Of a stretch of 64,000 nt of DNA, positions 5,823 through 62,716 are shown piece after piece (within the stretch, counting starts at the first letter, position 1; every line of letters begins with the position of its first letter). Made by a program: the position numbers and the translations under genes. The notes beneath the pieces are model-generated. The model searched no databases. It was not told the DNA's origin and saw nothing but the letters and a program-made list of their open reading frames with translations. This DNA is from Dehalococcoidia bacterium (lineage in GTDB: Bacteria > Chloroflexota > Dehalococcoidia > SZUA-161 > SpSt-899), in the NCBI GenBank assembly GCA_048539495.1, contig JBLYPS010000003.1, forward strand, positions 31,486 through 95,485. Reading direction: 5' to 3'.

Positions 5823-7182
5823 TTGGCTGTATGCTAAACTTGGGATAGCGCTCACCGGATATACCTCGGGCCTTTTCGATGACTTCGGCAACGACGAAGA
5901 GCGATCCGGTGGCGCAGATAAGGTCTCGCTTCCCGGCCTGCGCCAGCGCCGCGGAGACCGCCTGGGCGACGTTTTCCACTGCTTGAGCTTCCACTCCCTG
6001 TCGCTCAAATTCCTGGGCCAGTGCCTTTGCGGCAACGGCGCGAGGGTGCTGGGCGGCGGTAGTTATTACCTTATCGAAGAACGGCGCCAACTCGGCTATT
6101 ATCGCCGAGCAATCCTTGTCGCCAGAAATCCCGATGATCAGAATCGCCCGATCAAAGCGGAAGTATCGCTGGAGCGCCTCTCTGAGCCTCCTGGCCGAGT
6201 CGTCATTATGGGCGCCGTCGGCGATCAGGAGAGGTTCACGCTGTAGAATTTCGATTCTCCCCGGCCAGCGAACATTGGCCAGCCCGGAGATAATGTGGTG
6301 TTTCTCGATATCAAGAGTTTCCAATGCAGCGACGGCGGTGGCCGCATTCTCGAGCTGGTGCTCACCAAGTAATGGGATGGTGAGGTCGTACTGACTTTTT
6401 CGCCCTCTTATATTCACTGTTTGGGACTCTAAACTGAAGTCTTTTCCCTGCCAGGTTATCTCCTCTCCCACCATGATGAGTTTGGCCTCTTTCTTGAGGC
6501 AAATCTCGCGGATTACATCTGCTGCTTCGTCAACCTGGGGAGAGCTGATCACCGTGACACCGGGCTTTATGATTCCGGCCTCTTCGGCTGCTATCTGCGG
6601 GATGGTATCGCCGAGAACAGCGGTGTGGTCCCGGCTTATCGAGGTGACAACACACACCTCTGTGCGTGCCACGTTGGTAGCATCGAGTCGCCCTCCAAGG
6701 CCCGCCTCCACCACCAGAAAGGCCGCCTCTTGCTTCTGGAAATAGTGGAAGGCCATGGCGGTAAGAATCTCAAAGGTGCTCAGTTCCTCTGACTGGCCTC
6801 TATTTGTTGCCTCGATCTCAGGCTTTATCTCAGAGAGAAGCTCGGCAAACTCGTGCTCCGCGATGAGCTGCCCATCGATTCTTATCCGCTCGCGCATAGT
6901 GTGCAGATGTGGGGAGGTGTAGAATCCGGTGCGGAACCCCGCAACGCTGAGAGTTGAAGCGATCATCGCCGCCGTGCTGCCCTTTCCCTTTGACCCGGCG
7001 ATATGGACCGTCCTTGTTCTTAGATGGGGGGAACCCAATCGCCGAAGCAGATCCTCCATGCGCCGCAGGTCGAACCGGGCAGCATACCCAAATCCAGGCC
7101 AGCGCTCATAATCGGTAAAGCTCAAGATATAATCGAGGGCTGCTTGATAATTCATTGGACTCTTAAACCACCATAAACTCAA
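5809..7182 (-). CDS. folC: Folylpolyglutamate synthase / dihydrofolate synthase
   Basis: Mur-ligase P-loop 'GSKGKGSTAAMIASTL' and a FolC-like domain order. The start could be M1 or M10. Confidence 0.85.
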   Translation of the reverse strand: MSLWWFKSPMNYQAALDYILSFTDYERWPGFGYAARFDLRRMEDLLRRLGSPHLRTRTVHIAGSKGKGSTAAMIASTLSVAGFRTGFYTSPHLHTMRERIRIDGQLIAEHEFAELLSEIKPEIEATNRGQSEELSTFEILTAMAFHYFQKQEAAFLVVEAGLGGRLDATNVARTEVCVVTSISRDHTAVLGDTIPQIAAEEAGIIKPGVTVISSPQVDEAADVIREICLKKEAKLIMVGEEITWQGKDFSLESQTVNIRGRKSQYDLTIPLLGEHQLENAATAVAALETLDIEKHHIISGLANVRWPGRIEILQREPLLIADGAHNDDSARRLREALQRYFRFDRAILIIGISGDKDCSAIIAELAPFFDKVITTAAQHPRAVAAKALAQEFERQGVEAQAVENVAQAVSAALAQAGKRDLICATGSLFVVAEVIEKARGISGERYPKFSIQPTVLG

Positions 7183-14640: not shown

Positions 14641-14700
14641 GGCTAAAGGCTGAAGGAGGCTAATAGGCACTTCAGCCTTCAGCCTAACAGCCTAACAAAT
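14641..14700. repeat. Family B palindromic repeat
   Basis: The sequence is 'ggctaaaggctgaaggaggctaataggcacttcagccttcagcctaacagcctaac'. It overlaps the serS stop codon. Confidence 0.45.
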
Positions 14701-15951
14701 TGCATCCACGCCCATGTATGTTCGCAGCACCTCGGGCACCGTTATGCTGCCATCACCCTGCTGATAGTTTTCCAGAACAGCGATGAGGATGCGAGGCAAG
14801 GCCAGCCCGGAGCCGTTCAGGGTGTGGGCAAACTGTGGTTTGGCGCCCACATCGGGGCGATAGCGTACATTGGCCCGTCGTGCCTGGAAATCGGTGCAGT
14901 TGGAGCAGGAGCTTACCTCCAGCCACTCGCCGCACCCAGGGGCCCAGACCTCAATGTCGTAGGATTTCGCGGAGGCAAAGCCGAGGTCAGCGGCGCACAA
15001 CTGCACTATCCGATACGCCAGCCCCAGTTTACCACACACCACTGCGGCATCTTCCACCATTTTCTCCAACTCCTCATCGGAGGTATCTGCTTCGACGAAC
15101 TTGTAGAGTTCAACCTTATCGAACTGATGACCTCGCTTGATCCCGCGGGTGTCTTTCCCGGCCGACATCTTCTCCCGGCGGAAGCAGGCGGTAAAGGCCA
15201 CGTGGTAGATCGGCAGGGTGCCCGGTGGCAGAATCTCACCGCGGTAGAGGTTGGTCAGGGGAACCTCGGCGGTGGGGACGAACCAGAAGTCATCCTGCTG
15301 ATCGTGGTAGAGGTTATCGGCAAACTTGGGCAGATTCCCTGATCCCACCATGCACTCCCGCTTGACCATAAAAGGGGGATATATCTCGGTGTACCCGTGT
15401 TCCTTGATATGCAGATCAAGCATGAAATCGATCAGCGCTCGTTGCAGTCGGGCTCCCAATCCTTTGAGCACATAGAAGCGAGAGCCGGAGAGCTTAACTC
15501 CTCTCTCAAAGTCAATGATTCCCAAAGCCTCACCCAGCTCCCAGTGGGGACGCGGCTTAAAATCGAACTGGCGGCGCTCGCCCCGGGAGCGCACCACTAC
15601 GTTGTCGGCTTCGCCTTCGCCAGGGGGGACGCTGGGATGGGGGATGTTGGGGATGCGCAGGAGGATGTCGGTAAGCTGCTCCGATAGCCTAGTCTCTTCC
15701 TGCTCCAGCGTTTTGATGCGTTCGCCCACCTGCCGCATATCGGCAATGAGGTCAGAGGGCTTCTCTTTCATTCGGCCCAGTTCTCTGCTCACTTCGTTGC
15801 GCCGCGCTCGGAGGGCCTCAATCTCCTGCAAGAGCTTGCGATGCTCCCCATCCAGACGAATAATCTCATCGAGAGGGGCATCATCATGGCGCCTGGCTAA
15901 CGCCTCTCGGAGGATGTCAGGGTTTTGGCGAATGAACTGTATGCTAAGCAT
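14692..15951 (-). CDS. serS: Seryl-tRNA synthetase
   Basis: An N-terminal coiled-coil and a class II catalytic core are present in a 419-aa product. Confidence 0.9.
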   Translation of the reverse strand: MLSIQFIRQNPDILREALARRHDDAPLDEIIRLDGEHRKLLQEIEALRARRNEVSRELGRMKEKPSDLIADMRQVGERIKTLEQEETRLSEQLTDILLRIPNIPHPSVPPGEGEADNVVVRSRGERRQFDFKPRPHWELGEALGIIDFERGVKLSGSRFYVLKGLGARLQRALIDFMLDLHIKEHGYTEIYPPFMVKRECMVGSGNLPKFADNLYHDQQDDFWFVPTAEVPLTNLYRGEILPPGTLPIYHVAFTACFRREKMSAGKDTRGIKRGHQFDKVELYKFVEADTSDEELEKMVEDAAVVCGKLGLAYRIVQLCAADLGFASAKSYDIEVWAPGCGEWLEVSSCSNCTDFQARRANVRYRPDVGAKPQFAHTLNGSGLALPRILIAVLENYQQGDGSITVPEVLRTYMGVDAIC

Positions 15952-15992
15952 GGGTGCGTTTACTCCTTTGTTCTCCTTTGGGACATACCCTG

Positions 15993-18560
15993 CTATATAG
16001 TAGAGATTAATTCTTTAACGCTTTTGAATCTGTACTTTTCAAACTCTTCCTGGTCAACTCTTATGAATGACCACTTATTCCCTGACAAGCCCGTAGCATC
16101 CTTGCACCATTTCTTCATCCTGTTGTCTTTATGCTCAACATCAACATCTTCTCTTCCTTTTGTTTCAATAATTATCTGTTCGCTGTTATCAGTTACTGCT
16201 ACAAAATCAGGGTAGTACAATCTAAGGTTACCCTTCGAGTCTCTATATTCTACAAAGAATCCTATTTTCGGAACGATTTTGCTGAAAGCCGTTACATCAT
16301 CAGCTCTATCCAAAAATTTGGCAAAATCTGCCTCAAAATCATTATCGCAAGGGACGTAGTTAAAGGGGCATCTGTTGGCTGGATAAACCAATTTTGACCA
16401 TACAAACGGTCTTGTATCCGAGACTTTTATGGTGTCCCTCTTTTCGGGTTCTCTTTCGATGAAGGTCATCTCTTTGAACGCATTCACAAATAACTTCATC
16501 AACTGTTCCTGAACATCTGGGGAACTCAATTTGTAAAGTACTTTTGGGTCTTCAAGGTCAATTTGCTGAGTAAACAATTTTTCCACAACATATTTTTTCA
16601 CCAGCGGATAAAAACTCGTAAAAGCACCACCTATCTTCAACCGCTTAAGTATCTGATCGGTATAATAGGCAATTACGCTTTTAGAATCCTGAGGCACAGG
16701 TAAATCCCATTTTCTTTTTATAACTTCCATACCTCTGAGCATATCCACAGCAACATATTCCATTTCTAAGACCTTATTCTCCAGAGGGATGTTCATAGGA
16801 GGCAAGTTATTAACATCCACCTCACTTAAATGAAATTCTCTTATGAAAATTCTTGGACTCAAGATAGGTATTTCAATGTCCCTATCCAATTTATTTTCAT
16901 CTACGAATATGGTGGTTAAATTAAGCGACTTTCCGGTGTCAAACTCAGCAAACTTTATCCCCTCCTGTTTTTCTAATTTTTCAAGAATATCTGTTAACCC
17001 TGGGGGGCCAATCACCTCAAGAACATTTACTGATTTGTCTATTGATGTATCTTCTCCTGGAAACATTTTCCTTAAACCCCGCCCAATGACCTGTTCCGGG
17101 AGCACCTCTCTTTTTGATCCATAGGACCTTAATCCCACAATGACGTTAACATTTCTCACGTCCCAACCCTCGTTTAGCATCATCGTACTGACTATTGCCT
17201 CTACACCATGAGGGAATAACTTTTCCAGCTCTTGATCCAGTGATATCTTCTCAGGGTCATCAATAAGCTTCGCCACCTTTCTCGCCTTGGGCAAGTCTGC
17301 TTTTTTAACCTCTCCGGTGCTATCTGTGTGTATCAGCAATACCTTACCCTTAAGGTCAGGAACAGCAGAAATATATTCAAATACCTCGTCTGCCTCCTCG
17401 TTCTCAGGGCATTGAAAGAACAGCACCGGCTTTTTTGATAATGGTTGTAGTGCCTTTTTGTATTCCCGCCATCTCCTTATCCCGGCATCAATCCATGCCC
17501 TATATCTCTCGACTACATTAGTTGATGCAATCTCTTCAGCATTCTTGACCATCCCCTTCAATGGTAACTTTACGATATTCATTTCAATTGCTTCCTTGAG
17601 CGAGAAGTCCACGATAATCCAGGGGAACAAAGCCCCGGCCTCGGTTTTAGGCGTAGCCGAGAAGTCCAGCTCCATATTTATGCCTTTACCGTGTTCAGAC
17701 ACCAGATTCTTGTTAAGATCAAGAAGTATCTTCTTCCATGCCTTTTCAAAACTGTAGATATGATGTGCTTCATCTTTCAAAATCATTATATTGGGACAGG
17801 AAGTTAAGACCTCCTTTATTCTGTTCTCCTGATAAATATCAGAAACATTATAAACCTCGGGCAATTCCATAACTTTATCTACATATTGTTCTACTTCTTC
17901 CTTTTTGCTCTGTCTTTGTTCCAACTGCTGGATATTGGTCACAAACAGCACACCCTCAGGAATAACATGAATCGGGTCTTCCTTAAGAATTACTTTGAGG
18001 TTAAATTCTTCCTGCCACTCTGGTGGAATAAGTGGCAATTCTCTGAATATTTTCCCATCCTCAAAATCTCTTGTAAGCCTGTCATAAATGATGTTTTTGT
18101 CACCCGCAATAACCAGAAATTTGGGGGTATAACCATCACTGTTTTCTTTTTTGTGATTGAAGTACTGCCATATAATGCTTATTGCCATGACGAAGGTTTT
18201 GCCGGAGCCTGTTGCCATTTTAAAGGCGTAAAGCGGATATTGATCATAAGAAGGGTCATACGCCTGTATAGCTCCTGCTCCGAAATCCCTTGCCATGTCT
18301 ATAAAGTTGCGTTTTTTCATCACTTCATAAACGTAAACCAATGTTTCAATCGCTTCCCTCTGGCAGAACCAGAACTCAAAAGGCTCACCATCTACAATAT
18401 GGTCTTCACTAAACCAGAATTGCAGCAGGCGGCGGGTGGTGTCGGTTGTCTTGGGATAGCCCTGTTCTCGCCAGGCGAAAACTGCCTTGCGAAGCTCATT
18501 GACTAAATAGGCTTCGCTTGTGCGTCTTTGTTGTGGATACAAAAGTTCGGCCGGTTTCAT
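15993..18560 (-). CDS. res: Type III restriction endonuclease Res subunit (SF2 helicase plus C-terminal PD-(D/E)xK nuclease)
   Basis: Motif I 'MATGSGKTFVMA', a DEAH box 'LKDEAHHIY', and a C-terminal 'YYPDFVAV...IIIETKG' nuclease motif. The gene lies in a low-GC region. Confidence 0.85.
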   Translation of the reverse strand: MKPAELLYPQQRRTSEAYLVNELRKAVFAWREQGYPKTTDTTRRLLQFWFSEDHIVDGEPFEFWFCQREAIETLVYVYEVMKKRNFIDMARDFGAGAIQAYDPSYDQYPLYAFKMATGSGKTFVMAISIIWQYFNHKKENSDGYTPKFLVIAGDKNIIYDRLTRDFEDGKIFRELPLIPPEWQEEFNLKVILKEDPIHVIPEGVLFVTNIQQLEQRQSKKEEVEQYVDKVMELPEVYNVSDIYQENRIKEVLTSCPNIMILKDEAHHIYSFEKAWKKILLDLNKNLVSEHGKGINMELDFSATPKTEAGALFPWIIVDFSLKEAIEMNIVKLPLKGMVKNAEEIASTNVVERYRAWIDAGIRRWREYKKALQPLSKKPVLFFQCPENEEADEVFEYISAVPDLKGKVLLIHTDSTGEVKKADLPKARKVAKLIDDPEKISLDQELEKLFPHGVEAIVSTMMLNEGWDVRNVNVIVGLRSYGSKREVLPEQVIGRGLRKMFPGEDTSIDKSVNVLEVIGPPGLTDILEKLEKQEGIKFAEFDTGKSLNLTTIFVDENKLDRDIEIPILSPRIFIREFHLSEVDVNNLPPMNIPLENKVLEMEYVAVDMLRGMEVIKRKWDLPVPQDSKSVIAYYTDQILKRLKIGGAFTSFYPLVKKYVVEKLFTQQIDLEDPKVLYKLSSPDVQEQLMKLFVNAFKEMTFIEREPEKRDTIKVSDTRPFVWSKLVYPANRCPFNYVPCDNDFEADFAKFLDRADDVTAFSKIVPKIGFFVEYRDSKGNLRLYYPDFVAVTDNSEQIIIETKGREDVDVEHKDNRMKKWCKDATGLSGNKWSFIRVDQEEFEKYRFKSVKELISTI

Positions 18561-18562
18561 AG

Positions 18563-18943
18563 CTATACCGCCGCTATTTGTTGTAGTTTTTCTAAAGTCC
18601 TTTTGGATAAATCAAGTGCAGTTTTTGCTCTCTGGGCATCAATACTCGCCTCACCTTCGTAATCAGCATCTTTTCTTTCCTTCCATAAGCGACGCAGGTT
18701 CTTGGCTATCTTCTTCTCCACATTACGTGATAATCCTTGGTATCTCTCCCTTACAAACTTGTGAGTGTCAACCCTTGGAATGGGTATGTTTTTAGCAATA
18801 AGATGATTCCTTGCAATACAAAATATGCCGTAATAAGAGCGACTCATTGCCGAACGCAGATAGGCTTCTCGCAAATCTACTTTTTCTTGGCAGGATATAA
18901 GTTCGTCAGCCAATTGGATATACAACTCCCAATTAAAACTCAT
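18563..18943 (-). CDS. Hypothetical protein in the restriction-modification operon
   Basis: The 126-aa ORF shows the usual operon coupling, with 3 nt between its stop and the res start. It is low GC. 'SRSYYGIFCIARNHL' is vaguely HEPN-like. Confidence 0.4.
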   Translation of the reverse strand: MSFNWELYIQLADELISCQEKVDLREAYLRSAMSRSYYGIFCIARNHLIAKNIPIPRVDTHKFVRERYQGLSRNVEKKIAKNLRRLWKERKDADYEGEASIDAQRAKTALDLSKRTLEKLQQIAAV

Positions 18944-19353
18944 CTTGGTCTCACCATTATTTCAAGTATATTACTAATATCGTCATCTACATAAAGCCAC
19001 CACTCCTCATCCAATCTATCTAAAAGATTCAGGGAGTCTTCAGGTGATAAGTTAGTTTTTATGATAATAAAAAGTCCTTCGAAATCTTCCTCGTGGTCGT
19101 GGTGAAGTTCTAACTCAAGAACAATATCATTACCAAACACACGTCTAATTTGCCAAAAGGCCTCTAACAAGACAGCCAATAATTCATGCTCTATAATGAA
19201 ACTTATAATTTCTGCTTCAGGATTGATAAAACTATATAATTGAAAGAGAGAGCTGACATTATCGGGCATAAAAAGTTCATTTTCTGTCAATGCTTCCGGG
19301 AAAGTCAAGGTTGTCATTTCTTTTCCTCTCCCTACCGCATTCTCACTACTCAT
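18940..19353 (-). CDS. Hypothetical acidic protein in the restriction-modification operon
   Basis: The 137-aa ORF has 4-nt overlaps with both neighbours and is low GC. Confidence 0.4.
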   Translation of the reverse strand: MSSENAVGRGKEMTTLTFPEALTENELFMPDNVSSLFQLYSFINPEAEIISFIIEHELLAVLLEAFWQIRRVFGNDIVLELELHHDHEEDFEGLFIIIKTNLSPEDSLNLLDRLDEEWWLYVDDDISNILEIMVRPR

Positions 19354-19356
19354 ACC

Positions 19357-20160
19357 TCACACCTCTATTTTTATTATCTTATTCGTATCGTTCCCAAATA
19401 CATCCACTACTTTAACCATTAGCTGATATTCCCCTGCCTCATCGTATGTGTGCATGGCTTCATAATCTACTTTCGGATTCTTTTTCACCCTGAAACTCTG
19501 CCACTGATTGTGGAAGGTGTCGCCTTTATAATCCCAATCAACCGCCCAGTAATCTATGAGTTCCCTTGAATCCTTTACCCTGCTGGCAATCTCTGCAAGC
19601 TCTGCGGTTGGTGCAAGTTGAAAGTCGGTGATTTTTAACGTTACTTCATTATCTTTAACTTTAGTTTCAATCTCCAGATAGGCAACCTCCGGGAATTTTA
19701 CATATTTCGAGAGTTCCTTTGCAACAACGTCATCCCTTATTTTCAGTAGTTGCAGGTCTAAACCTACTAAAGAGGATTTGATTTCATTCACGGATGGTAT
19801 CTGGATGAGTTTCAAATCAACGCTGTTCTTCTTTGCCAGGTCTTTCGCCAGTTCATTGACGTCATAACTCCACTCCCAGCCCAATATATCTGCTTTGTTG
19901 AAGTTATTTGCCCGGCACTCAATTACTACTTTTTCAACTTCGCCCATCGTCACAGGGGCATTCAACGGGCCAACATGAACCGCCCTGTTCCCCATCCTGC
20001 CATGCAGATATCTGAAGTCTCTTAATGGTTGCGCTTGATAGAGTTTAAGCATAAAGGCAAGGTATTCATCCTCTCTTTCCTGCCAGTAAACCGTTTCATA
20101 ATTGCCGATATTCCAGAGCTCAAAGGGTCTTGCGGGTTTATCATACTTTCTAGCGCTCAT
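19357..20160 (-). CDS. Hypothetical protein with an Ig-like C-terminus in the restriction-modification operon
   Basis: The 267-aa ORF has a 4-nt overlap with the upstream small ORF. Its C-terminus 'YQLMVKVVDVFGNDTNKIIKIEV' looks beta-sandwich-like. Confidence 0.45.
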   Translation of the reverse strand: MSARKYDKPARPFELWNIGNYETVYWQEREDEYLAFMLKLYQAQPLRDFRYLHGRMGNRAVHVGPLNAPVTMGEVEKVVIECRANNFNKADILGWEWSYDVNELAKDLAKKNSVDLKLIQIPSVNEIKSSLVGLDLQLLKIRDDVVAKELSKYVKFPEVAYLEIETKVKDNEVTLKITDFQLAPTAELAEIASRVKDSRELIDYWAVDWDYKGDTFHNQWQSFRVKKNPKVDYEAMHTYDEAGEYQLMVKVVDVFGNDTNKIIKIEV

Positions 20161-20372
20161 GGTTCATTTTTCCTACTATGTTCTTTATGTGATTGGCTCA
20201 AAAAATCTTCCATACCTATCCCAAATTTATTTTCAAAGCCCTTCTTTGCAATATCTTCATATTCACTGAAATTGGCAATAAACAAATCTAATAGGCTGGA
20301 AACACAATATTTACAACCACCGTCACACTCAAAAATTATCTCAATTACTTTTTGAGCTTCATCTTTTCTCAT
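20157..20372 (-). CDS. Small Cys-containing hypothetical protein
   Basis: The 71-aa ORF has the motif 'CDGGCKYC' and is translationally coupled to mod and the next ORF. Confidence 0.3.
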   Translation of the reverse strand: MRKDEAQKVIEIIFECDGGCKYCVSSLLDLFIANFSEYEDIAKKGFENKFGIGMEDFLSQSHKEHSRKNEP

Positions 20373-21483
20373 TTTCCGTCAAATCCTTTGAATTATGAAT
20401 GTCTAAAAGCCTTTTTCTGGTAACCTGAATGGCAAACTTGGATAAATCAGAGCCTATCCATTTTCTGCCTAATTTCTCTGCTGTTGCTAAGGTTGTGCCT
20501 GAGCCACAGAAGAAATCTGCAACGATGTCGCCGGGGTCCGTTGTAGCCATTAATAAAACTTGCAAAAGTCCCTCGGATTTTTGGGTCAGAAAGTTTAGAC
20601 ACTCAGCAGAAACATTTATGACAGGTTTTACATTAACTGTTAGTAGTTTGCTGTTATTCAAAACTAATGTGATTTTGTCCTGTAGCACATCTCGCAAAAG
20701 CACATCCGCATAATATCTTCCACTTGCATCCCTAAGAGAAGTAAAAAACGGTTTTTCGTAATAAACTCTTTCTTTTAGTTTATTAAATTTAGGGTTTGCA
20801 TTTTTAGAATAGAATAAAATAATATCATGCTTCTTAGGAAAATCGGCTTCTTTACTCGGGGCGCCCCCTGTTCTATAACACCATGATATCTCATTTCTAA
20901 AACCTAGCTTATTTTCTCCACCCGGTCCGAAAACTTCGTCCATCATCACCTTAACATAATGTCCCGCATGCCAGTCAAGGTGCACATAGATAGAACCATT
21001 TTCAGCCAATAATTCCCTCATCAAAACCAACCGCTCATACATATATTCGAGATAAGAAGCAATCCCACCGCTCCAGGTATCCTTATAAGCCCGCTCTTCT
21101 ATGATAGATGGCTCCTTTTCTATTGCTTCGTCTCCAATTTTTGTTCTTATCGTAAAATCTGAACCTGTGAAAAACGGCGGGTCAATGTAAATCAGATTTA
21201 TCTTCCCAACCCAGCCCTGTTTAATCAGAGAACTCATCACTAATTTGTTATCGCCCCAGATAAGAAGATTCTTCCAGTCCTTTGAATAATTGGCGGGATA
21301 CTCGTCTTCGGGGAAAAATGAAATCGTATATCCACCCTTAATTCTGGGCTTGTTTACTGTTTCAACAACCTGAAATGGGAGATTGGGTTTTTCTATCGGT
21401 TTCTTCTCCCCTTTTTCGTATCGGTCGTATTTTTCTGCCCAGAGCAGCTCTACGTACTTCTTGTTATCAGGCATCTTTATCAC
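20359..21483 (-). CDS. mod: Beta-class N6-adenine/N4-cytosine DNA methyltransferase (Type III Mod-like, compact)
   Basis: Motif IV 'IYIDPPFFTG' comes before motif I 'DFFCGSGTTLATAEKLGRKWIGSDL', which is the beta-class order. At 374 aa it is short for a Type III Mod. Confidence 0.8.
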   Translation of the reverse strand: MIKMPDNKKYVELLWAEKYDRYEKGEKKPIEKPNLPFQVVETVNKPRIKGGYTISFFPEDEYPANYSKDWKNLLIWGDNKLVMSSLIKQGWVGKINLIYIDPPFFTGSDFTIRTKIGDEAIEKEPSIIEERAYKDTWSGGIASYLEYMYERLVLMRELLAENGSIYVHLDWHAGHYVKVMMDEVFGPGGENKLGFRNEISWCYRTGGAPSKEADFPKKHDIILFYSKNANPKFNKLKERVYYEKPFFTSLRDASGRYYADVLLRDVLQDKITLVLNNSKLLTVNVKPVINVSAECLNFLTQKSEGLLQVLLMATTDPGDIVADFFCGSGTTLATAEKLGRKWIGSDLSKFAIQVTRKRLLDIHNSKDLTENEKR

Positions 21484-21611
21484 CCCTTAGCCTACCTGCA
21501 AAGATTATTGCACAATTCCTCCTGTTATTGCGAGCAAAGTGAAGCAAGATCATCAGGGGGATTCTCGCCCTGAAACCCCCTAAAGCGGTTGACGGTTCTG
21601 TTCGTTTGTGC

Positions 21612-21640
21612 TTGACATAGGGTTTCCCCTTCCTTATAAT
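21612..21640 (+). promoter_or_regulatory. Consensus sigma70 promoter (TTGACA-17-TATAAT)
   Basis: 'ttgaca' at 21612-21617 and 'tataat' at 21635-21640 are separated by a 17-nt spacer. The promoter sits upstream of the HNH gene start at 21667. Confidence 0.5.
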
Positions 21641-21666
21641 TACAGTAAATAGGTTGGGGGTGAAAG

Positions 21667-21906
21667 ATGGGACAATTTCCTGAGTCAGTTAAGGATGATG
21701 CTTTCAAACGAAGTCGTGGCCGATGCGAATGTTGGCGTAAAACTCATAAGTGGCATAAAGGTAGATGTAAAACTATTATTAAGCGTAATAAGAATATGCA
21801 TTACCATCATATTCGTTCCAAAGGCCCTGATACTCTTGCAAATTGTGAGGTCCTTTGTATTGAGTGTCATGAGAAAACTCGCTCCTATGGTCGCTCAGAA
21901 TTCTAA
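21667..21906 (+). CDS. HNH endonuclease-domain small protein
   Basis: The 'CECW...HKGRC...HYHHIRSKGPDTLANCEVLCIECH' pattern matches an HNH/zinc-finger nuclease motif. Confidence 0.6.
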   Translation: MGQFPESVKDDAFKRSRGRCECWRKTHKWHKGRCKTIIKRNKNMHYHHIRSKGPDTLANCEVLCIECHEKTRSYGRSEF

Positions 21907-21974
21907 AAACTAAACCCGTTTGACTGCTTTATGCCCTGGAGTCATAAAGGGGCTTCGCTTCCGTCAATCCTGGC

Positions 21975-23492
21975 TTAGCCGGGGACTGTCCTTAACTGTG
22001 GAAACAGGATCACCTCCCGAATGGACTGGTGTCCAGTGAGGAGCATCACCAGCCGGTCGACCCCCATCCCCAACCCGCCCGTCGGGGGCATGCCGTGTTC
22101 TAAGGCCAGAAGGAAGTCCTCATCGATCCTCTCTGCCTCTTCATCGCCGAAGAGAGCTCTCACTCTTTCCTGTTCCTCGAAGCGCTCTCGCTGTTCCAGA
22201 GGGTCGTTGAGCTCACTGAAGGCATTGGCGATTTCCATTCCTCCGGCGAAGGCTTCGAATCGCTCCACCAGGTGGTCGCATCCCGGCTTTCTCTTGGCCA
22301 GGGGCGATAGCTTCACCGGGTAATCCATGAGGAATGTCGGCTGGATCAGGTTGGGCTCGACCGTATGGGAAAGTAAGTAATCAACGAGCTTGCCCCAACT
22401 CATTCCTTCCTCGACGCGGAGGCCGGTTTTCCTTATCTCTGCCTCGAGCGAGCGTGCGTCGGGGAAAGCCTCGAAATCGACCCCGCTTCCTTCTTTGATC
22501 GCCTCGCGCAGGGTGAGGCGCTGCCAGGGTGGAGAGAGGTCCACTGTCAGCTCGCCAAAGCTGATTCTCATCGTCCCCAAAACCTCCTTGGCGATGAAGG
22601 AGACCATTTGCTCGACCATCTCCATCACATCGTGGTAATCGGCATAGGCCTGGTAGCTCTCCAGAGTAGTGAATTCGGGATTATGTTTGGTAGAGATGCC
22701 TTCGTTGCGGAATATCCGCCCGATCTCGTAGACCCTGTCGAAGCCCCCGATAATGAGCCGTTTCAGATGAAGTTCGGTGGCGATGCGCAGATAGAGGTCG
22801 CTATCGAGGGCATGATGATGGGTAGCAAAAGGCCTGGCTAAAGCCCCGGCGGCAAGCGACTGCAACACCGGCGTTTCCACTTCGATGAATCCGCGCTTCT
22901 CAAGGAAACGTCGCATGGCCGAAATCGCCTGACTGCGCACCTCAAATGTGCGCCTTACCTGCTCGTTAGAGAGGAGATCGAGATATCGTTGGCGGTAGCG
23001 CTTCTCGACATCGGCAAGCCCATGCCACTTCTCGGGCAGAGGCTGCAGTGACTTCGACAGCATCGTGAAGTCGGATACCTTAACGGTGATCTCCCCGGCC
23101 CGAGTCTCGAAGAGCTCTCCTTCAACACCGATGAAATCGCCGATGTCGAAGTCTTGAAGCAGGCTATACTTCTCTTCGCCTATGGCATCCCGCTGGAGAT
23201 AGGCCTGAACCTTGCCCGATCCATCCCTGATATCCAGAAAGATAGCCTTGCCCATGGAGCGCATGGCTGTAATACGACCGGCGAGCTTCAGAGTCTGGAG
23301 ACGCTTCGCTCTGGAGACGATTTGCTCTGGAATCCCACTCCCCTCGACTCTCGACTCTCGATAGAGAGTGATGGCTTCCTGCGTAGTATGGCTACATAAG
23401 TATCGGGCAGGGTATGGATTGACACCGCGACTGCGGATTCTCTGGAGCTTGTCCAAGCGGCTTTGGATTAACTCTGCTTTTCTTTGTGCCAT
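21975..23492 (-). CDS. lysS: Lysyl-tRNA synthetase (class II)
   Basis: An OB-fold N-domain 'GRITAMRSMGKAIFLDIRDGSGKVQ' and a class II core are present. The gene lies downstream of greA, as in many bacteria. Confidence 0.9.
   Translation of the reverse strand: MAQRKAELIQSRLDKLQRIRSRGVNPYPARYLCSHTTQEAITLYRESRVEGSGIPEQIVSRAKRLQTLKLAGRITAMRSMGKAIFLDIRDGSGKVQAYLQRDAIGEEKYSLLQDFDIGDFIGVEGELFETRAGEITVKVSDFTMLSKSLQPLPEKWHGLADVEKRYRQRYLDLLSNEQVRRTFEVRSQAISAMRRFLEKRGFIEVETPVLQSLAAGALARPFATHHHALDSDLYLRIATELHLKRLIIGGFDRVYEIGRIFRNEGISTKHNPEFTTLESYQAYADYHDVMEMVEQMVSFIAKEVLGTMRISFGELTVDLSPPWQRLTLREAIKEGSGVDFEAFPDARSLEAEIRKTGLRVEEGMSWGKLVDYLLSHTVEPNLIQPTFLMDYPVKLSPLAKRKPGCDHLVERFEAFAGGMEIANAFSELNDPLEQRERFEEQERVRALFGDEEAERIDEDFLLALEHGMPPTGGLGMGVDRLVMLLTGHQSIREVILFPQLRTVPG
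23288..23372. repeat. Tandem-unit repeat inside the lysS N-terminal region
   Basis: The sequence 'ctggagacgcttcgctctggagacgatttgctctggaatcccactcccctcgactctcgactctcgatagagagtg' contains repeated ctctggagacg and actctcg units around a 'cccactcccctcg' core. Confidence 0.4.
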
Positions 23493-24197: not shown

Positions 24198-27101
24198 TTA
24201 CTCCATTTCGCCCCAATTCTGGCCCAGTTTGGTCTCCACCTTAAGAGACACGCTAAGCTCCATTGCCGCTGACATGATCTCCTGTACTAGTCGTTTCATC
24301 AACTCGATCTCTGCCTGCGGCACCTCAAAAAGAAGCTCGTCATGCACCTGAAGGATCATCTTGCTCTTGAGACTCCTAATATCTATCTCGTTCTGGATGT
24401 TGATCATCGCCAGCTTTATGATGTCGGCAGCGGTGCCCTGGACCGGCATGTTTATGGCCATCCGCTCCGCCGCTTGCCGCACTTGATAATTGGAGGAATT
24501 AATCTCCGGGATATACCGCCTTCTTCCCATCACCGTTTGAACGTATCCTTTTTCAACCGCGTGCTGCTTGGTCAAGTTAACATAATCCCTGACGCCGCGG
24601 TATCTTTCGAAGTAGGCGTTAATAAAATCGGTCGCTTTCTGGCGGGAGAGCCCGGTGGCCTGTTCCAGGCCATAATCGCCCATACCGTAGATCACACCGA
24701 AATTCACCACCTTGGCTATTCGTCTCATCTCTGAGGTCACCTCGTATGTCTCCACGCCGAAGACCTGCGAGGCGGTGGCGGCATGGATATCCTCGTCGTG
24801 GGCGAAAGCGGCCAGGAGCCCGGGATCCTGCGATAGATGCGCCATAACGCGGAGCTCGATCTGGGAGTAATCCGCACTCAACAGCCAAGAGTCGAGAGTC
24901 GAGAGTCGAGAGTCGAGAGTCCCCCTCGCCCCCCGACTCCAGACTCCAGACTCCCGACTCCAGACTCCCTTTGGGGCGACGAAAGCCTGTCTGATCCGAT
25001 TTCCTATCTCAGTACGCACGGGGATATTCTGCAGATTGGGATCGCTCGATGATAAACGCCCGGTAGCGGTGACGGTCTGATTGAAATTGGTATGCACCCT
25101 TCCGGTCTCCGGATCGATGAGGGCTGGGAGGGCATCAACATAGGTTGATTTGAGCTTGGCGAGCTGGCGATACTCGATGATGTGCTCAATAGCGGGGTGC
25201 TCGCCCCGTAGCCCCTCCAGGACTGAGATATCCGTGGAGTAACCGCTCTTGGTCTTGCGCCCCGGGGTCAGCTTAAGCTCATCGAAAAGAATCCTCCCCA
25301 GTTGTTGGGTGGAGTTTATATTGAACTTATACCCCACCGACTCGTAAATCTCACCCTCGATCCTGGCCATCTCCATAAACATGACCTGCGACATATCCCG
25401 AAGCAAGCTAGTATCCAGAGCTATCCCATTCCTCTCCATCCGATATAAGACCGGAACCAGCGGCATCTCAACCTCGACGAAAAGATCCCACAACCCCTCT
25501 CTCTTCAGTTCTGCCTCCAGAAGTTGGCTTAGTCTACCCGTCATATCGGCATCGGCGCAGGCGTAATCGGCGGCTAGTGCAATGCTGACATCGGCCATAG
25601 AACCCTGTTTCGGTCCCGACCCGATGAGGGCGCTTATGGGGGTCATCTCAATGCCCAGTTTGCCGAAAGTGAGCTGCTTCAACCCTAGAGACTTCTCCCC
25701 CAGAAGATGCGCCGCGATCATGGTATCGAAGTTGATATGCTGCAATTCCAACCCGTGTTGCCAGAGAACGGTCATATCATACTTGGCATTGTGGGCTATC
25801 TTCGAAATAGCGGGGTCTATCATGATAGGCTTGAGTCTGGTAGTGATCTCGGATAGAGAGAGTTGACTAGTTGATAGTTGATAGTTGATAGTCGCTGGTC
25901 CCTCCCCACCCCAGACTGCCGACTGCTGACTGCTGACTGCCGACTGCCTGTGCCCGACGGGGATATACCAGGCCTTCGCCGGAGTCATCGAAAGAGAGAT
26001 GCCTACCAATGTCGTGTGTCTTGCCTCTTTGCCGGAGGTCTCCGTATCCACCACTAATGCCCCGGCTGTGGAGAGTTCCTCCACCAGTTCATTAAGGGCT
26101 TCGGAGGTAGCCACTATTTCATAAAAAGTCGAGAGTTCAGAAGGACGGGTATCTTGCCCGTCATCTCCAGTCAAGGGGAGGGGGACTCCAGACTCCAGAC
26201 TCCAAACTCCAGACTCGGATGTTGTCCCCGGCAGTTTGTCCAGGAGACTGAAGAACTCCAGCTCTCGAAACAGCGCGGTAACCGTGTCCCGCTTATAGCT
26301 GCTCACGCGGCAGGATGAGAGGTCGAGGCTTACCGGGACATCGGTGACGATGGTGGCTAACTTTTTGCTCTGTCGTGCCACTTCTTCATTGGACCGTAGG
26401 ATCTTTTGAATCCTGAGCGGGCTCACCTCGTCGATTCGTCGGTAGATTCCTTCCAGGCTGTCAAATTGCTGGATAAGCTTGACGGCGATCTTCTCTCCGA
26501 TACCGGCTACTCCAGGGATATTATCCGTCTGATCGCCTTTGAGGCCCTTCAGGTCGGCAAGCTGCTGTGGTCGGAGGCTGTATCGCTGCTGTACCGCTGC
26601 TTCATCGTAAAGTTGAGTGTCACTGAACGGGCGCCGGGGCCGGGGAAGAAGCACCTCGACACCGGGGGAGACAAGCTGCAGGGTATCGGTATCGCCGGTT
26701 ACGATGATAGAATAGATCCCCTGTGCGCTGGCCTGCTGGCTGAGAGCACCAAGAATATCGTCGGCCTCGTAGCCTTCCACCTCAAAGGCGAGGACGCCGA
26801 GGGCCTGGACCAGTTGGCGAACGACGGCGAATTGTGAGATGAGCTCGTCAGGCGCTTTGGGACGGTGCGCCTTATAATCCTGAAACTGAATATGCCTGAA
26901 GGTGGGAGCGGCGGTGTCGAAGGCGATTGCCCAGTGTGAGGGCTTAAACTCTTCGAGTGTCTTCAGGAGCATGCTTGCGAAGCCATAAACAGCCCCCGTT
27001 GGTTTTCCCTCCTTGGTCGAAAGTGCCGGCAGGGCATGGAAGGCGCGATGGATAAGGGCATGTCCGTCGAATAGGAGAAGCAGCGGTCTTTCTGTTGACA
27101 T
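24198..27101 (-). CDS. polA: DNA polymerase I
   Basis: A 5'-nuclease N-terminus, a 3'-5' exonuclease region and polymerase motifs ('DYSQIELR', 'QVHDEL') are present. At 967 aa it is enlarged by three in-frame repeat insertions. Confidence 0.9.
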   Translation of the reverse strand: MSTERPLLLLFDGHALIHRAFHALPALSTKEGKPTGAVYGFASMLLKTLEEFKPSHWAIAFDTAAPTFRHIQFQDYKAHRPKAPDELISQFAVVRQLVQALGVLAFEVEGYEADDILGALSQQASAQGIYSIIVTGDTDTLQLVSPGVEVLLPRPRRPFSDTQLYDEAAVQQRYSLRPQQLADLKGLKGDQTDNIPGVAGIGEKIAVKLIQQFDSLEGIYRRIDEVSPLRIQKILRSNEEVARQSKKLATIVTDVPVSLDLSSCRVSSYKRDTVTALFRELEFFSLLDKLPGTTSESGVWSLESGVPLPLTGDDGQDTRPSELSTFYEIVATSEALNELVEELSTAGALVVDTETSGKEARHTTLVGISLSMTPAKAWYIPVGHRQSAVSSQQSAVWGGEGPATINYQLSTSQLSLSEITTRLKPIMIDPAISKIAHNAKYDMTVLWQHGLELQHINFDTMIAAHLLGEKSLGLKQLTFGKLGIEMTPISALIGSGPKQGSMADVSIALAADYACADADMTGRLSQLLEAELKREGLWDLFVEVEMPLVPVLYRMERNGIALDTSLLRDMSQVMFMEMARIEGEIYESVGYKFNINSTQQLGRILFDELKLTPGRKTKSGYSTDISVLEGLRGEHPAIEHIIEYRQLAKLKSTYVDALPALIDPETGRVHTNFNQTVTATGRLSSSDPNLQNIPVRTEIGNRIRQAFVAPKGVWSRESGVWSRGARGTLDSRLSTLDSWLLSADYSQIELRVMAHLSQDPGLLAAFAHDEDIHAATASQVFGVETYEVTSEMRRIAKVVNFGVIYGMGDYGLEQATGLSRQKATDFINAYFERYRGVRDYVNLTKQHAVEKGYVQTVMGRRRYIPEINSSNYQVRQAAERMAINMPVQGTAADIIKLAMINIQNEIDIRSLKSKMILQVHDELLFEVPQAEIELMKRLVQEIMSAAMELSVSLKVETKLGQNWGEME
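24889..24970. repeat. In-frame heptamer-array palindromic insertion in polA (immediately before motif A)
   Basis: '(gagtcga)n' and 'ccccctcgcccccc' and '(gactcca)n' encode SRESGVWSRESGVWSRGARG just upstream of LLSADYSQIELR. Confidence 0.65.
25856..25950. repeat. In-frame tandem-heptamer insertion in the polA 3'-5' exonuclease region
   Basis: '(agttgat)n' and 'gctggtccctccccacccca' and '(gactgcc/gactgct)n' encode SAVSSQQSAVWGGEGPATINYQLSTSQLSL. Confidence 0.6.
26165..26217. repeat. In-frame repeat in the polA inter-domain linker
   Basis: 'ggggagggggactccagactccagactccaaactccagactc' encodes SGVWSLESGVPLPLTG. Confidence 0.55.
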
Positions 27102-37882: not shown

Positions 37883-37971
<89 letters not shown>

Positions 37972-38022
37972 CATGTATCCTGCTCGGCAATTGTATCCAG
38001 GGATATACTCAGCCGCTCGAAA

Positions 38023-38108
38023 GCGGAGGGGGTGGGATTCGAACCCACGGTCACCAGAGATGACACCGCTTTTCGAGAGCGGCACCTTAAGCCACTCGGT
38101 CACCCCTC
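38023..38108 (-). tRNA. tRNA-Ser (anticodon CGA)
   Basis: The reverse complement reads GGAGGGGTGACCGAGTGGCTTAAGGTGCCGCTCTCGAAAAGCGGTGTCATCTCTGGTGACCGTGGGTTCGAATCCCACCCCCTCCG. It has a CCGCT/AGCGG anticodon stem with the loop CTCGAAA, a long variable arm, and no encoded CCA. Confidence 0.85.
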
Positions 38109-38813
38109 CGGGCCTGTTCTTGAAGCTAAATTAGCGATTGTAAGCACTTACCCCATTAGACATAACAAGGTTTTGCTGATAATTTGCTAATAATGATTTT
38201 GAACGGCTTCTTTTTCACACCTGCCATTAAGCAGTTTATCAAAACTCTGGGCTGCCTCCTCTTGAAGTCCAGGAGCAACGTGGGAGTAGGTGTCGAAGGT
38301 TATCTGAATAACTGGCATAGCCTAACCGATCCTGGACTATCTTGGGGTGTACTCCCTACTTCAGCATTAGTGAGACGCGGGTGCGGATTTCGCTCAAAGC
38401 CACCCGGTTCGCCAAACCGGCCACCTTCTCGGTCGAAACCGGCCACCTGCCCTAGAAGTAGCCGGGGGTCGGAGCGACACTAGGCTTATTTCAGTTTAGC
38501 TCAAGTTGGTGTCAATTGCAAATCCCTCCTTTCGCTCGTTTTTCTGATTTGCCACCGGGGTGGGGGGGGTGAGGGAAAAGCGTCAGATTGACATTGCGAT
38601 GGCTGCGTAGCTCATTATGAGGATTCTAGGGCTTTCTTGTTGCCCAGCTCTACTCCAGCTCCTCTCCGAGTCCTCTTCGACTAATTGGGCTCCATCTAGA
38701 AGTGGCCGATTTGCTCCGTGAAGGTGGCCGATTAACTCCGAAAAACGCACGCTGCACGCACACTCGGACGAACCGGAACCAGATTTTCATTCTCCACATT
38801 AGCTTTAGTAGAA

Positions 38814-52096: not shown

Positions 52097-52172
52097 TGGG
52101 CAATGGGTAATGGGGTGTTACGCGGTACCCCTATAACCTATGACCTATAACCTATAACCTCGGATAAACATG
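52090..52172. repeat. Family C palindromic repeat
   Basis: The sequence is 'gggtaatgggcaatgggtaatggggtgttacgcggtacccctataacctatgacctataacctataacctcgg'. Confidence 0.6.
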
Positions 52173-61889: not shown

Positions 61890-62636
61890 ATGGGTATCAT
61901 AATTAAGTCGCCAAACGAAATAAATATAATGCGCCAGGCAGGACGGATCGTAGCAACTATTCTCGCTGCCTTGAAAAGCGAGGTGAGGTCGGGCATAAGC
62001 ACCGGGATGCTGGATGCTATTGCCACACGGATGTTTCAAGAGTACGGGGCACGGGCGTCGTTCAATGGGTACCGAGGTTTTCCGGCCTCTATCTGCACAT
62101 CAGTGAACGAAGAGGTGGTTCATGGCCGGCCGGGGGGGAGAGTCCTTCAAGAAGGCGATCTGATTGCCATCGATGTGGGAGCGATATATAATGGTTTTCA
62201 GGGAGATGCGGCGATAACCGTGGGAGTGGGCCAGATAAGCCCCGAGGCGGAAAGTCTCATTGATACCACTCGCCGGTCTCTGGAAGCGGGTATCGCGGCA
62301 GCCCGCGAAGGGGCTCGTCTGAGCGACATTTCAGCGGCGATCCAGTTATGTGCCGAGTCCAATGGTTTCTCGCCGGTAAGACAATATGTGGGGCACGGGA
62401 TCGGTCGACAGATGCACGAAAAACCGGAGATTCCCAATTTCGGGCCGCCAGGCAAAGGGCCGATATTGAAACGAGGCATGACTCTGGCCCTGGAACCAAT
62501 GATCAACGCCGGCGGCTGGGCCACCAAGGTGCTCCCCGATCGCTGGACGGTGGTCACGGCCGATGGCAGCCTTTCGGCACATTTCGAGCATACCATCGCT
62601 ATCACCAATGGTGCAGCGGAGATACTGACTGTGTGA
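61890..62636 (+). CDS. map: Methionine aminopeptidase type I
   Basis: 'CTSVNEEVVHG' and 'DIGAIYNGFQGD' match metal-binding motifs of the enzyme. Confidence 0.9.
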   Translation: MGIIIKSPNEINIMRQAGRIVATILAALKSEVRSGISTGMLDAIATRMFQEYGARASFNGYRGFPASICTSVNEEVVHGRPGGRVLQEGDLIAIDVGAIYNGFQGDAAITVGVGQISPEAESLIDTTRRSLEAGIAAAREGARLSDISAAIQLCAESNGFSPVRQYVGHGIGRQMHEKPEIPNFGPPGKGPILKRGMTLALEPMINAGGWATKVLPDRWTVVTADGSLSAHFEHTIAITNGAAEILTV

Positions 62637-62716
62637 TGGGTGATGGGTAATAGGTAATGGGTGATGGGGGTTACGGGGTGCCCCTATAACCTATAACCTA
62701 TGACCTATAACAAGGA
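62634..62716. repeat. Family C palindromic repeat
   Basis: The sequence is 'tgatgggtgatgggtaataggtaatgggtgatgggggttacggggtgcccctataacctataacctatgacctataacaagg'. The map TGA stop is its first unit. Confidence 0.6.

Follow-up and report, generated by a model that had tools for sequence, protein, structure and literature searches.

A Type III-like restriction-modification operon with a split methyltransferase gene and putative toxin-antitoxin-type cargo in a Dehalococcoidia genome

The window analyzed here is a stretch of 64,000 nucleotides (nt) from a Dehalococcoidia bacterium (GenBank assembly GCA_048539495.1, contig JBLYPS010000003.1, positions 31,486 to 95,485), and the element of interest is an island of restriction-modification (R-M) genes lying between serS and lysS. 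The island comprises (i) the gene of the helicase-nuclease subunit Res, (ii) two genes encoding the N- and C-terminal halves of the methyltransferase subunit Mod, named ModN and ModC, and (iii) three further genes, orf71, located between the two halves of Mod, and orf137 and HEPN126, located between ModC and Res. We regard the locus as probably being a horizontally acquired Type III-like R-M operon, with Mod split in two and toxin-antitoxin-type cargo placed both in the split and before Res. As such it represents a known theme in modular variation rather than a new enzyme of six subunits. The operon would read Mod then Res on the minus strand, with Mod broken at the linker between its two domains, and orf71, orf137 and HEPN126 would be cargo co-transcribed with the operon, not subunits of the enzyme. 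The features of the operon are as follows.

15993..18560, minus strand: Res, 855 amino acids (aa), superfamily 2 (SF2) helicase with a C-terminal PD...ETK nuclease
18563..18943, minus strand: HEPN126, HEPN-domain protein of 126 aa with an isoelectric point (pI) of 9.5, Pfam HEPN PF05168
18940..19353, minus strand: orf137, 137 aa, pI 4.1, acidic partner of HEPN126
19357..20160, minus strand: ModC, C-terminal half of Mod, 267 aa, alpha/beta domain followed by a PKD/FN3 beta-sandwich
20157..20372, minus strand: orf71, 71 aa, conserved small protein with a DGGCxYC motif, placed in the Mod split
20359..21483, minus strand: ModN, N-terminal half of Mod, 374 aa from GTG, beta-class N6/N4 methyltransferase core with a probable target-recognition domain (TRD)
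20539..20916, minus strand: hypervariable segment of ModN (aa ~190-315), probable TRD, marked by a drop of identity among homologues
21484..21535, minus strand: Mod leader, which travels with the R-M module; left edge of the island, common to the sister locus L006

The first-pass annotation, made from the letters of this DNA alone, had described a low-GC island of Type III-like R-M genes and proposed its horizontal acquisition, and both statements are upheld: all the open reading frames (ORFs) are real and the GC content of the island is 0.40 compared to 0.53-0.56 in the flanks. The genes are closely spaced, with ModN and orf71 overlapping by 14 nt, orf71 and ModC sharing an ATGA, ModC and orf137 separated by 3 nt, orf137 and HEPN126 overlapping by 4 nt (18940-18943), and HEPN126 and Res separated by 2 nt. 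The start of ModN is likelier the ATG at 21474 (371 aa), called in sister metagenome-assembled genomes (MAGs), than the GTG. Exact protein records exist for Res (MFW0858893.1) and HEPN126 (MFW0858894.1). For comparison, a scan of genomes with ModC returned more than 580 matching stretches, the best 80 of which were taken as loci, and the proteins of the window were mapped onto 84 loci (L001-L084), comprising these best 80 and four loci obtained earlier. The family of this Type III-like operon is found in many bacterial and archaeal phyla.

A methyltransferase encoded in two pieces

ModN matches the Pfam family N6_N4_Mtase (PF01555) with 135 bits and the Mod subunit of EcoP15I with an E-value of 3.8e-19 in a sequence search of the Protein Data Bank (PDB), and displays the motif order of the beta class (motif IV, TRD, motif I), with DPPF preceding FCGSGTT. 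The PADLOC profile MTase_III (PDLC03633, 616 positions) aligns with both ORFs, ModN covering positions 19-358 (259.7 bits) and ModC positions 364-615. All 39 distant relatives (35-41% identity) and about 23 close ones encode both halves in a single ORF, the fused protein reading ...RKRLLDIHNSKDLQNEGKKYDKPARPFELWNIGNYE... across the linker. The 267-aa product, which the first-pass annotation had counted among four ORFs of no obvious function between Mod and Res, is therefore the C-terminal part of Mod, an outcome which that annotation had itself named as one that would refute its reading. By the same token, the "hypothetical" 268-aa proteins annotated in dozens of phyla are C-terminal Mod halves. 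The Ig-like tail noticed on the 267-aa product also stands, in the form of a PKD/FN3 beta-sandwich for which the PKD match in Pfam is weak. The preceding alpha/beta domain shows likeness to restriction-endonuclease-like folds, and the PDB sequence search returns no meaningful match of ModC to any solved structure. A PD-(D/E)xK active site in ModC was considered and rejected, D91 being conserved family-wide but E126-x-K128 missing in the distant group.

Type III Mod is a single polypeptide, whereas here ORFs of 374 and 267 aa flank orf71. Mod is broken at one Lys-rich inter-domain linker in 18 of the ~41 non-redundant close loci, and in each of the 18 ModC begins with a proper start codon in the context M-x-x-KKY(G/D)KPARPFELWN. 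Neither an intron nor an intein accounts for the split: Rfam gives no match in 15500..22500 at E<=0.1, and orf71 contains no Hint or other Pfam domain.

The amino acid identity of ModC is uniform along its length, ~78% among close homologues, and reaches 80-86% across phyla. Recent inter-phylum transfer was rejected as the cause of the latter, and the cross-phylum identity reflects constraint, since synonymous sites are saturated (synonymous divergence, pS, ~0.7) and the ratio of nonsynonymous to synonymous change (dN/dS) is 0.03-0.07, equal in split and fused lineages. Mod is thus encoded as two pieces under strong constraint, and the ModC half of the split form is probably functional, judged by selection. 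The same values bear on the possibility that the R-M system is decaying, with mod broken by a junk insertion, non-functional, and the operon heading to loss. Mod is indeed interrupted in the window, frameshift-like breaks occur elsewhere in the mod genes of L004/L019 and of L032, and res is interrupted in L104, a locus of the same lineage; but the recurrence of the same linker split with an intact ModC start, a selective constraint on ModC no weaker than in fused genes and the preserved translational coupling make decay unlikely. We prefer to see in ModN and ModC two pieces that would reassemble into a working Mod and act with Res in the manner of other Type III-like enzymes.

The first-pass annotation had considered the compact Mod to be devoid of room for a typical TRD and had suggested that the extra ORFs might supply specificity. 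Neither proposal is supported. ModN contains a segment of ~125 aa located where the TRD of beta-class enzymes sits (aa 190-315), in which identity among 28 close homologues drops to 8-50% compared to 80-93% in the flanking catalytic blocks. When ModN is compared with the sister locus L006, nucleotide identity is 25-58% in this segment, in contrast to complete identity over the initial 120 nt of the gene. This pattern argues that the segment is the probable TRD. ModC, on the other hand, is uniformly conserved and therefore not the determinant of specificity differences, and the other three ORFs are interchangeable cargo.

Res displays the architecture expected of the restriction subunit, SF2 helicase motifs followed by a PD-(D/E)xK nuclease, in a gene downstream of mod. 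The translation contains GSGKT, DEAH and YPD...IIIETK, and profile searches return Pfam ResIII (56.5 bits), RE_endonuc (22.6 bits, just below the gathering score of 23.4) and PADLOC REase_III (51.7 bits); the PDB sequence search gives no meaningful match for Res. Its mean identity to 23 close homologues is 74%. Mod and Res form a Type III-like pair with a variable TRD.

Cargo positions and their occupants

The close relatives disclose two recurrent cargo positions, the Mod linker (slot 1) and the junction between ModC and Res (slot 2). Slot 1 accommodates MNT+HEPN or MNT+HepT pairs, Fic_N-Fic, a 424-aa protein with no assigned family, or orf71. The cargo of slot 2 is more diverse, including (i) orf137+HEPN, often behind a third gene; (ii) AAA+ with an S8 protease; (iii) a PHP-SMC ATPase with Schlafen/AlbA_2; (iv) an extra methylase with a BrxC/D-like ATPase; (v) OLD (AAA_15 with TOPRIM); (vi) a 23S-IVP four-helix protein; (vii) HTH-M78 with DUF4411; (viii) ABC ATPases; (ix) AbiEii; (x) PycTM with a cyclase (Pycsar); and (xi) AIG2. 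The cargo genes are co-directional and exchanged between relatives. A cargo-free form, with fused Mod followed directly by Res, occurs in L013, L024 and L038, where the ModC stop codon overlaps the Res start (aaaATGAaacc); where cargo is present, its genes use this ATGA again.

Close relatives with 75-95% identity in Mod and Res lack orf71, orf137 and HEPN126 or have other genes in their place. This speaks against the proposal that a compact Mod devoid of a TRD relies on the four ORFs as novel accessory subunits, which supply specificity or form one new six-component anti-phage machine; under it the three proteins would be a fixed accessory module. The tight, co-directional packing of the six genes, the same six-gene layout in three further contigs, and the resemblance of the ModC alpha/beta domain to restriction-endonuclease-like folds, by which it may touch DNA, are compatible with such a machine. 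The 267-aa ORF is nevertheless a part of Mod, ModN has a hypervariable TRD-like block of its own while ModC is uniformly conserved, and the contigs with the six-gene layout all come from one Dehalococcoidia lineage, so that we consider this proposal highly improbable. The layout itself is present in same-lineage Dehalococcoidia MAGs and in no other lineage, and the modules recur independently elsewhere. An operon with exchangeable cargo remains the preferred reading.

Several details of the slots were recorded in individual loci. Slot 1 of L014 (1885-3507) contains a tandem duplication of a unit consisting of the ModN 3' end (aa 332-373), MNT and HEPN, a structure pointing to unequal recombination between conserved stretches of Mod as one way in which cassettes may turn over. 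In slot 2, ~55 nt of the ModC 3' end are duplicated before Res in L035, and L006 and L029 carry the duplication 'gtgaggataaATGA'; the window has neither. No target-site duplication was found at slot 1. Integron-type cassettes with attC sites were rejected, given that the genes overlap or lie 2-3 nt apart, leaving no room, and that no flanking inverted repeats were found. Both slots are filled in L086 (2005-9366), which reads ModN, HEPN, MNT, ModC, MNT, HEPN, TIR_2-like, orf137-like, HEPN-like, Res, amounting to three HEPN pairs and a TIR protein in a single R-M operon; its TIR_2-like gene (156 aa, weak Pfam matches) lies directly upstream of the orf137+HEPN pair.

The GC content of the Mod/Res core is 0.36-0.42 in most close loci (L001-L045), whatever that of the flanks (0.29-0.56), and tracks the host in the distant group. 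The low GC of the core is not simply a sign of recent transfer, because synonymous sites are saturated.

The cargo of slot 2 in the window is the pair formed by orf137 and HEPN126. The 126-aa product, first described as vaguely HEPN-like, proves to match Pfam HEPN (PF05168) with 25.5 bits, above the gathering score of 22, as well as PADLOC HEPN_IX. It is a single domain, with no fused ABC-ATPase N-domain, and six homologues share the invariant residues R30, R35, R45-N46, H61 and R90-x2-A-D-Y95. Hidden Markov model searches on the four ORFs between ModN and Res hence resolve two of them, the 267-aa product as part of a Type III Mod and the 126-aa product as HEPN, and leave orf71 and orf137 with no family match.

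The likely start of orf137 is M13, at ~19317. About 50 homologues were found, all unannotated, and wherever the downstream DNA is intact the gene lies directly 5' of a HEPN126-like gene. The combination occurs inside R-M operons of the family (L022, L034, L045, L086) and, in the archaeal locus L085, outside any R-M system. In all of these, as in the window, the partner gene is 5' and the toxin-type gene 3'; in the window the two genes overlap by 4 nt and the proteins are of opposite charge (pI 4.1 for orf137 against 9.5 for HEPN126). orf137 shows weak nucleotidyltransferase-like fold similarity, with neither an NTP_transf_2 match nor a GS...DxD motif, and its AlphaFold2 model (predicted local distance difference test score, pLDDT, 82) gives no significant match in Foldseek. 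In our reading the two genes form a toxin-antitoxin module that is of the MNT-HEPN kind but divergent, orf137 standing tentatively in the place of MNT. HEPN126 is a putative RNase or RNA-binding toxin that would be held in check by orf137. The pair would work as a toxin-antitoxin or abortive-infection module and, by analogy with PrrC, might stabilize the operon or serve as a second line of defence once restriction fails; a backup role of this sort is the one suggested in the literature for PrrC and for further HEPN proteins encoded in R-M operons (PMC3710099; PMC12707154).

A third gene of variable type often lies before the orf137-like genes; the window has the two-gene core only. This third gene encodes (i) a 354/355-aa protein with a RiboL-PSP-HEPN-like C-terminus just under the Pfam threshold (L006 10843-12358; L085 4935-6824); (ii) a ~250-aa protein with no assigned family (L022, L034, L045, L087); or (iii) the TIR_2-like protein of L086.

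The slot 1 cargo, orf71, is under purifying selection (dN/dS 0.15-0.43 against its homologues in L001, L008 and L009). An exhaustive profile search with this small DGGCxYC protein retrieves 193 representative clusters at E<=1e-3; most of the proteins stand alone and measure 55-75 aa. Among the 150 representatives listed, four (P0204, P0210, P0283, P0300) carry the domain fused N-terminally to NTP_transf_2 (MNT), and orf71 follows an MNT+HEPN pair in the Mod split of L006 and L009. Because of these fusions and this adjacency, orf71 belongs to the neighbourhood of MNT/HEPN toxin-antitoxin systems and is not a Mod subunit. A single three-part system of orf71, orf137 and HEPN was also considered and rejected, the components occurring independently of each other.

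A regulatory role for orf71 deserves separate mention. As a controller-like protein, and not as toxin-antitoxin cargo, orf71 would time the expression of ModC and Res when the operon enters a new host. It is small, conserved and always immediately 5' of ModC; it shows zero synonymous differences between the window and L006 while pS is 0.21 for ModC; and a copy sits upstream of a different R-M enzyme in L089. There (5960-6310), the orf71 copy is enclosed by a stub of the ModN 3' end and the opening 17 codons of ModC, directly upstream of a 1027-aa Type ISP/MmeI-like enzyme, with an AbiEii gene and a Y1 transposase nearby. Because it is flanked by the ModN and ModC stubs, it is a relic and not a second association. 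Controller proteins are small helix-turn-helix regulators encoded upstream of the R-M genes; searches of orf71 for a helix-turn-helix and for Pfam, NCBIfam and PHROG families return no match, and its fusions to MNT nucleotidyltransferases and position after MNT-HEPN pairs point to the toxin-antitoxin world. Regulation by orf71 appears rather unlikely to us, and its assignment to the cargo is retained.

Some observations weigh against a Type III-like operon carrying toxin-antitoxin-type cargo. HEPN126 does not contain the canonical Rx4-6H motif, displaying instead R90-K-D-A-D-Y95 (R-x3-D-Y) and a separate H61, and its RNase activity is for this reason not assured; a HEPN-T variant of the PF05168 type with the same motif has been described by Anantharaman et al. 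2013 (PMC3710099). orf71 is present in the L001 operon, which contains no HEPN at all. Res scores far below the NCBIfam equivalog cutoffs (303.8 against 800 for the BPTD_3080 family; 20.7 against 564 for PRK15483), so that "Type III" denotes a likeness and not curated membership. Finally, L104 (GCA_002583255.1, BBPD01002759.1; 846-3512), from a related MAG, has an interrupted res in this island: an opposite-strand 179-aa ORF with no Pfam match precedes a 388-aa C-terminal Res fragment, and orf137, the HEPN gene and serS are kept; decay of the system does therefore happen.

Relation to known defence systems

Type III R-M enzymes cleave DNA in an ATP-dependent reaction that needs two inversely oriented unmethylated sites, and Mod hemimethylates. 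Compared to EcoP15I and EcoP1I, the operon of the window preserves the Mod-then-Res order, a beta-class Mod with a central variable TRD, and a Res comprising a helicase and PD-ExK nuclease. It differs in the extra conserved C-terminal module of Mod (~260 aa, alpha/beta and PKD), encoded as a separate polypeptide, in the extra genes inside the operon, and in the distance of Res from curated cutoffs.

Genes in pieces are known to arise from free-standing mobile genes, as in the phage ribonucleotide reductase split by a homing endonuclease. The split mod resembles such cases in that an inserted ORF divides a functional gene between two domains while selection keeps acting on each half, and is distinguished from them by inserts of toxin-antitoxin type instead of homing endonucleases; no evidence of homing was found. 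A further parallel is the allelic exchange of TRDs known in the type III mod genes of Haemophilus influenzae (PMC1557822). There, as here, a hypervariable central part of mod contrasts with conserved flanks and res, in a mosaic pattern between close relatives. No phase-variable repeat tract was found here, and whole cargo genes vary as well.

Most known cases of defence genes lodged in R-M operons come from Type I loci, with the defence genes placed between other genes. The paradigm is PrrC-EcoprrI, which shares with the window a HEPN protein encoded between R-M subunit genes. Here, however, the HEPN protein has no ABC-ATPase fusion and possesses an acidic partner of its own, the host system is Type III-like instead of Type I, and a second cargo position is situated inside the mod gene itself. 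HEPN-T proteins of the PF05168 type have been reported to cluster with R-M operons, with a second-line or guard role proposed (Anantharaman et al. 2013, PMC3710099). Compared to MNT-HEPN systems (MntA-HepT), the slot 2 pair of the window shows the same order of partner 5' and HEPN 3', overlapping codons, the combination of an acidic and a basic protein, and a conserved Tyr beside the HEPN motif, and canonical MNT-HEPN or MNT-HepT pairs fill the same slots in sister operons; it departs from them in that orf137 has no NTP_transf_2 match or GS...DxD and in the R-x3-D-Y motif of HEPN126, in place of Rx4-6H.

HEPN and abortive-infection genes in R-M operons, as well as hypervariable mod TRDs next to a conserved res, are thus already established. 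Within a limited literature search, which found nothing specific on split mod genes with toxin-antitoxin insertions and is in itself a weak sign of novelty, three aspects appear new: (i) the use of one linker of Mod as a cargo site, through a split that recurs and is maintained by selection; (ii) the two-slot architecture across many phyla; and (iii) the two uncharacterized partner families, orf71 and orf137. In the loci compared, a widespread Type III-like family tolerates cargo inside its methylase gene, always at the same domain boundary and with both halves strongly constrained, and a changing set of known defence modules occupies two fixed positions. Should the split Mod prove functional, it would offer a natural example of a two-piece DNA methyltransferase and a compact system for asking whether embedded toxins sense the failure of R-M. 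orf71 and orf137, families with no Pfam, NCBIfam or PADLOC match, are flagged for study.

A more far-reaching and tentative interpretation sees in the operon a cassette platform with two fixed docking positions, the mod linker and the codon shared by Mod stop and Res start, at which toxin-antitoxin and abortive-infection modules would be captured and exchanged. In such a platform the two pieces of Mod would reassemble, the toxins would act as a guard or back-up coupled to the R-M complex and its state, and MNT/HEPN systems would gain in orf71 and orf137 two partner families not described before. We consider this possible, with the balance tilting against it.

Neighbouring genes and local history

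The island is bordered by the following features.

14692..15951: serS, flanking gene
21612..21640, plus strand: promoter TTGACA-17-TATAAT, sigma-70-type consensus (12/12 match), before the HNH gene
21667..21906, plus strand: HNH-like gene, 79 aa, weak HNH matches, GC 0.396
21975..23492: lysS, flanking gene

The serS and lysS labels are those of the first-pass annotation and agree with Pfam calls on the equivalent genes of same-lineage contigs. The same annotation had placed a HNH gene behind a perfect promoter, which is confirmed insofar as the TTGACA-17-TATAAT is the sole 12/12 match in 15800..22100, with an estimated chance expectation of ~0.002-0.01 in 6.3 kb, while the HNH match itself is weak (Pfam HNH 16.8 bits, below the gathering score; PHROG HNH families, E 1e-4; PADLOC ZorE, E 3e-4). 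Two overlapping plus-strand ORFs exist at this site, 21667..21906 (79 aa) and 21695..21913 (72 aa). Public annotations of the same-lineage loci L103 and L105, in which the gene is also present, call the 72-aa frame. The HNH matches and the CxC...HH...N...CxxCH pattern are limited to the 79-aa frame, whose exact sequence is absent from the protein collection, and on the strength of these matches and this pattern the gene is probably mis-annotated in public records.

The HNH gene might be thought to belong to the R-M system as a second nuclease, or as a homing enzyme mobilizing the island, being adjacent and divergent, similarly low in GC, endowed with a very strong promoter, and co-present with the R-M genes in L103 and L105. 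It is, however, absent from L006, where the same R-M system (95% identity) occupies the same site on the lysS side with 117 bp between lysS and mod. In addition, tblastn detects no match in L001-L084, and the phage collection contains none. Membership of the system is accordingly very unlikely, and the HNH gene, consensus promoter included, constitutes a separate low-GC insertion next to the R-M module.

Within the lineage, L103 and L105 show an identical layout between lysS and serS, HNH region included, and the six-gene layout is found solely in same-lineage Dehalococcoidia MAGs. L006 represents a sister Dehalococcoidia genome, with LysS 84% identical, that carries the same R-M system at the lysS side (ModC and Res 95% identical) with different contents: MNT+HEPN+orf71 in slot 1, AAA+ with S8 in slot 2, a different TRD and no HNH gene. 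Synonymous divergence between the window and L006 is 0.39 for lysS, 0.11 for Res, 0.21 for ModC and 0 for orf71; exchange after the divergence of the hosts has therefore left the locus a mosaic. Judged by the synonymous sites of Res and lysS, the R-M system is younger within Dehalococcoidia than the host gene.

The comparison also delimits the island. On the left, similarity to L006 begins ~60 nt upstream of the Mod ATG in patchy form and becomes near-identical from ~15 nt upstream; on the right, the edge is ~20 nt past the Res stop codon (~15970), at the serS ribosome-binding site. No convincing terminal direct or inverted repeats or tRNA were found bounding the island. A viral vehicle was rejected, IMG/VR containing only distant relatives (34-38% identity). 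The conserved Mod leader CTCGCAATAACAGGAGGAATTGTGCAAT (21500-21535, minus strand) includes an imperfect palindrome, CGCAAT...ATTGTG, that L006 also has and that could serve the R-M module as an operator or promoter element.

Elsewhere in the window, arrays of 7-nt tandem repeats, 4-5 copies each, lie at 24888-24968, 25861-25948 and 26184-26216, inside the polA ORF (24198..27101), with further arrays at 52130, 61091, 62633-62711, 63134 and 63634. The polA ORF stays open across the arrays, which appear as low-complexity peptide inserts such as SRESGVWSRESGVWS, and polA of L103 has the same length, 967 aa. Partial complementarity exists between the neighbouring arrays (AGAGTCG)n and (GACTCCA)n. 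At 37884-38109 the minus strand carries a pair of adjoining tRNA-Ser genes, with anticodons GGA and CGA, that are unrelated to the island.

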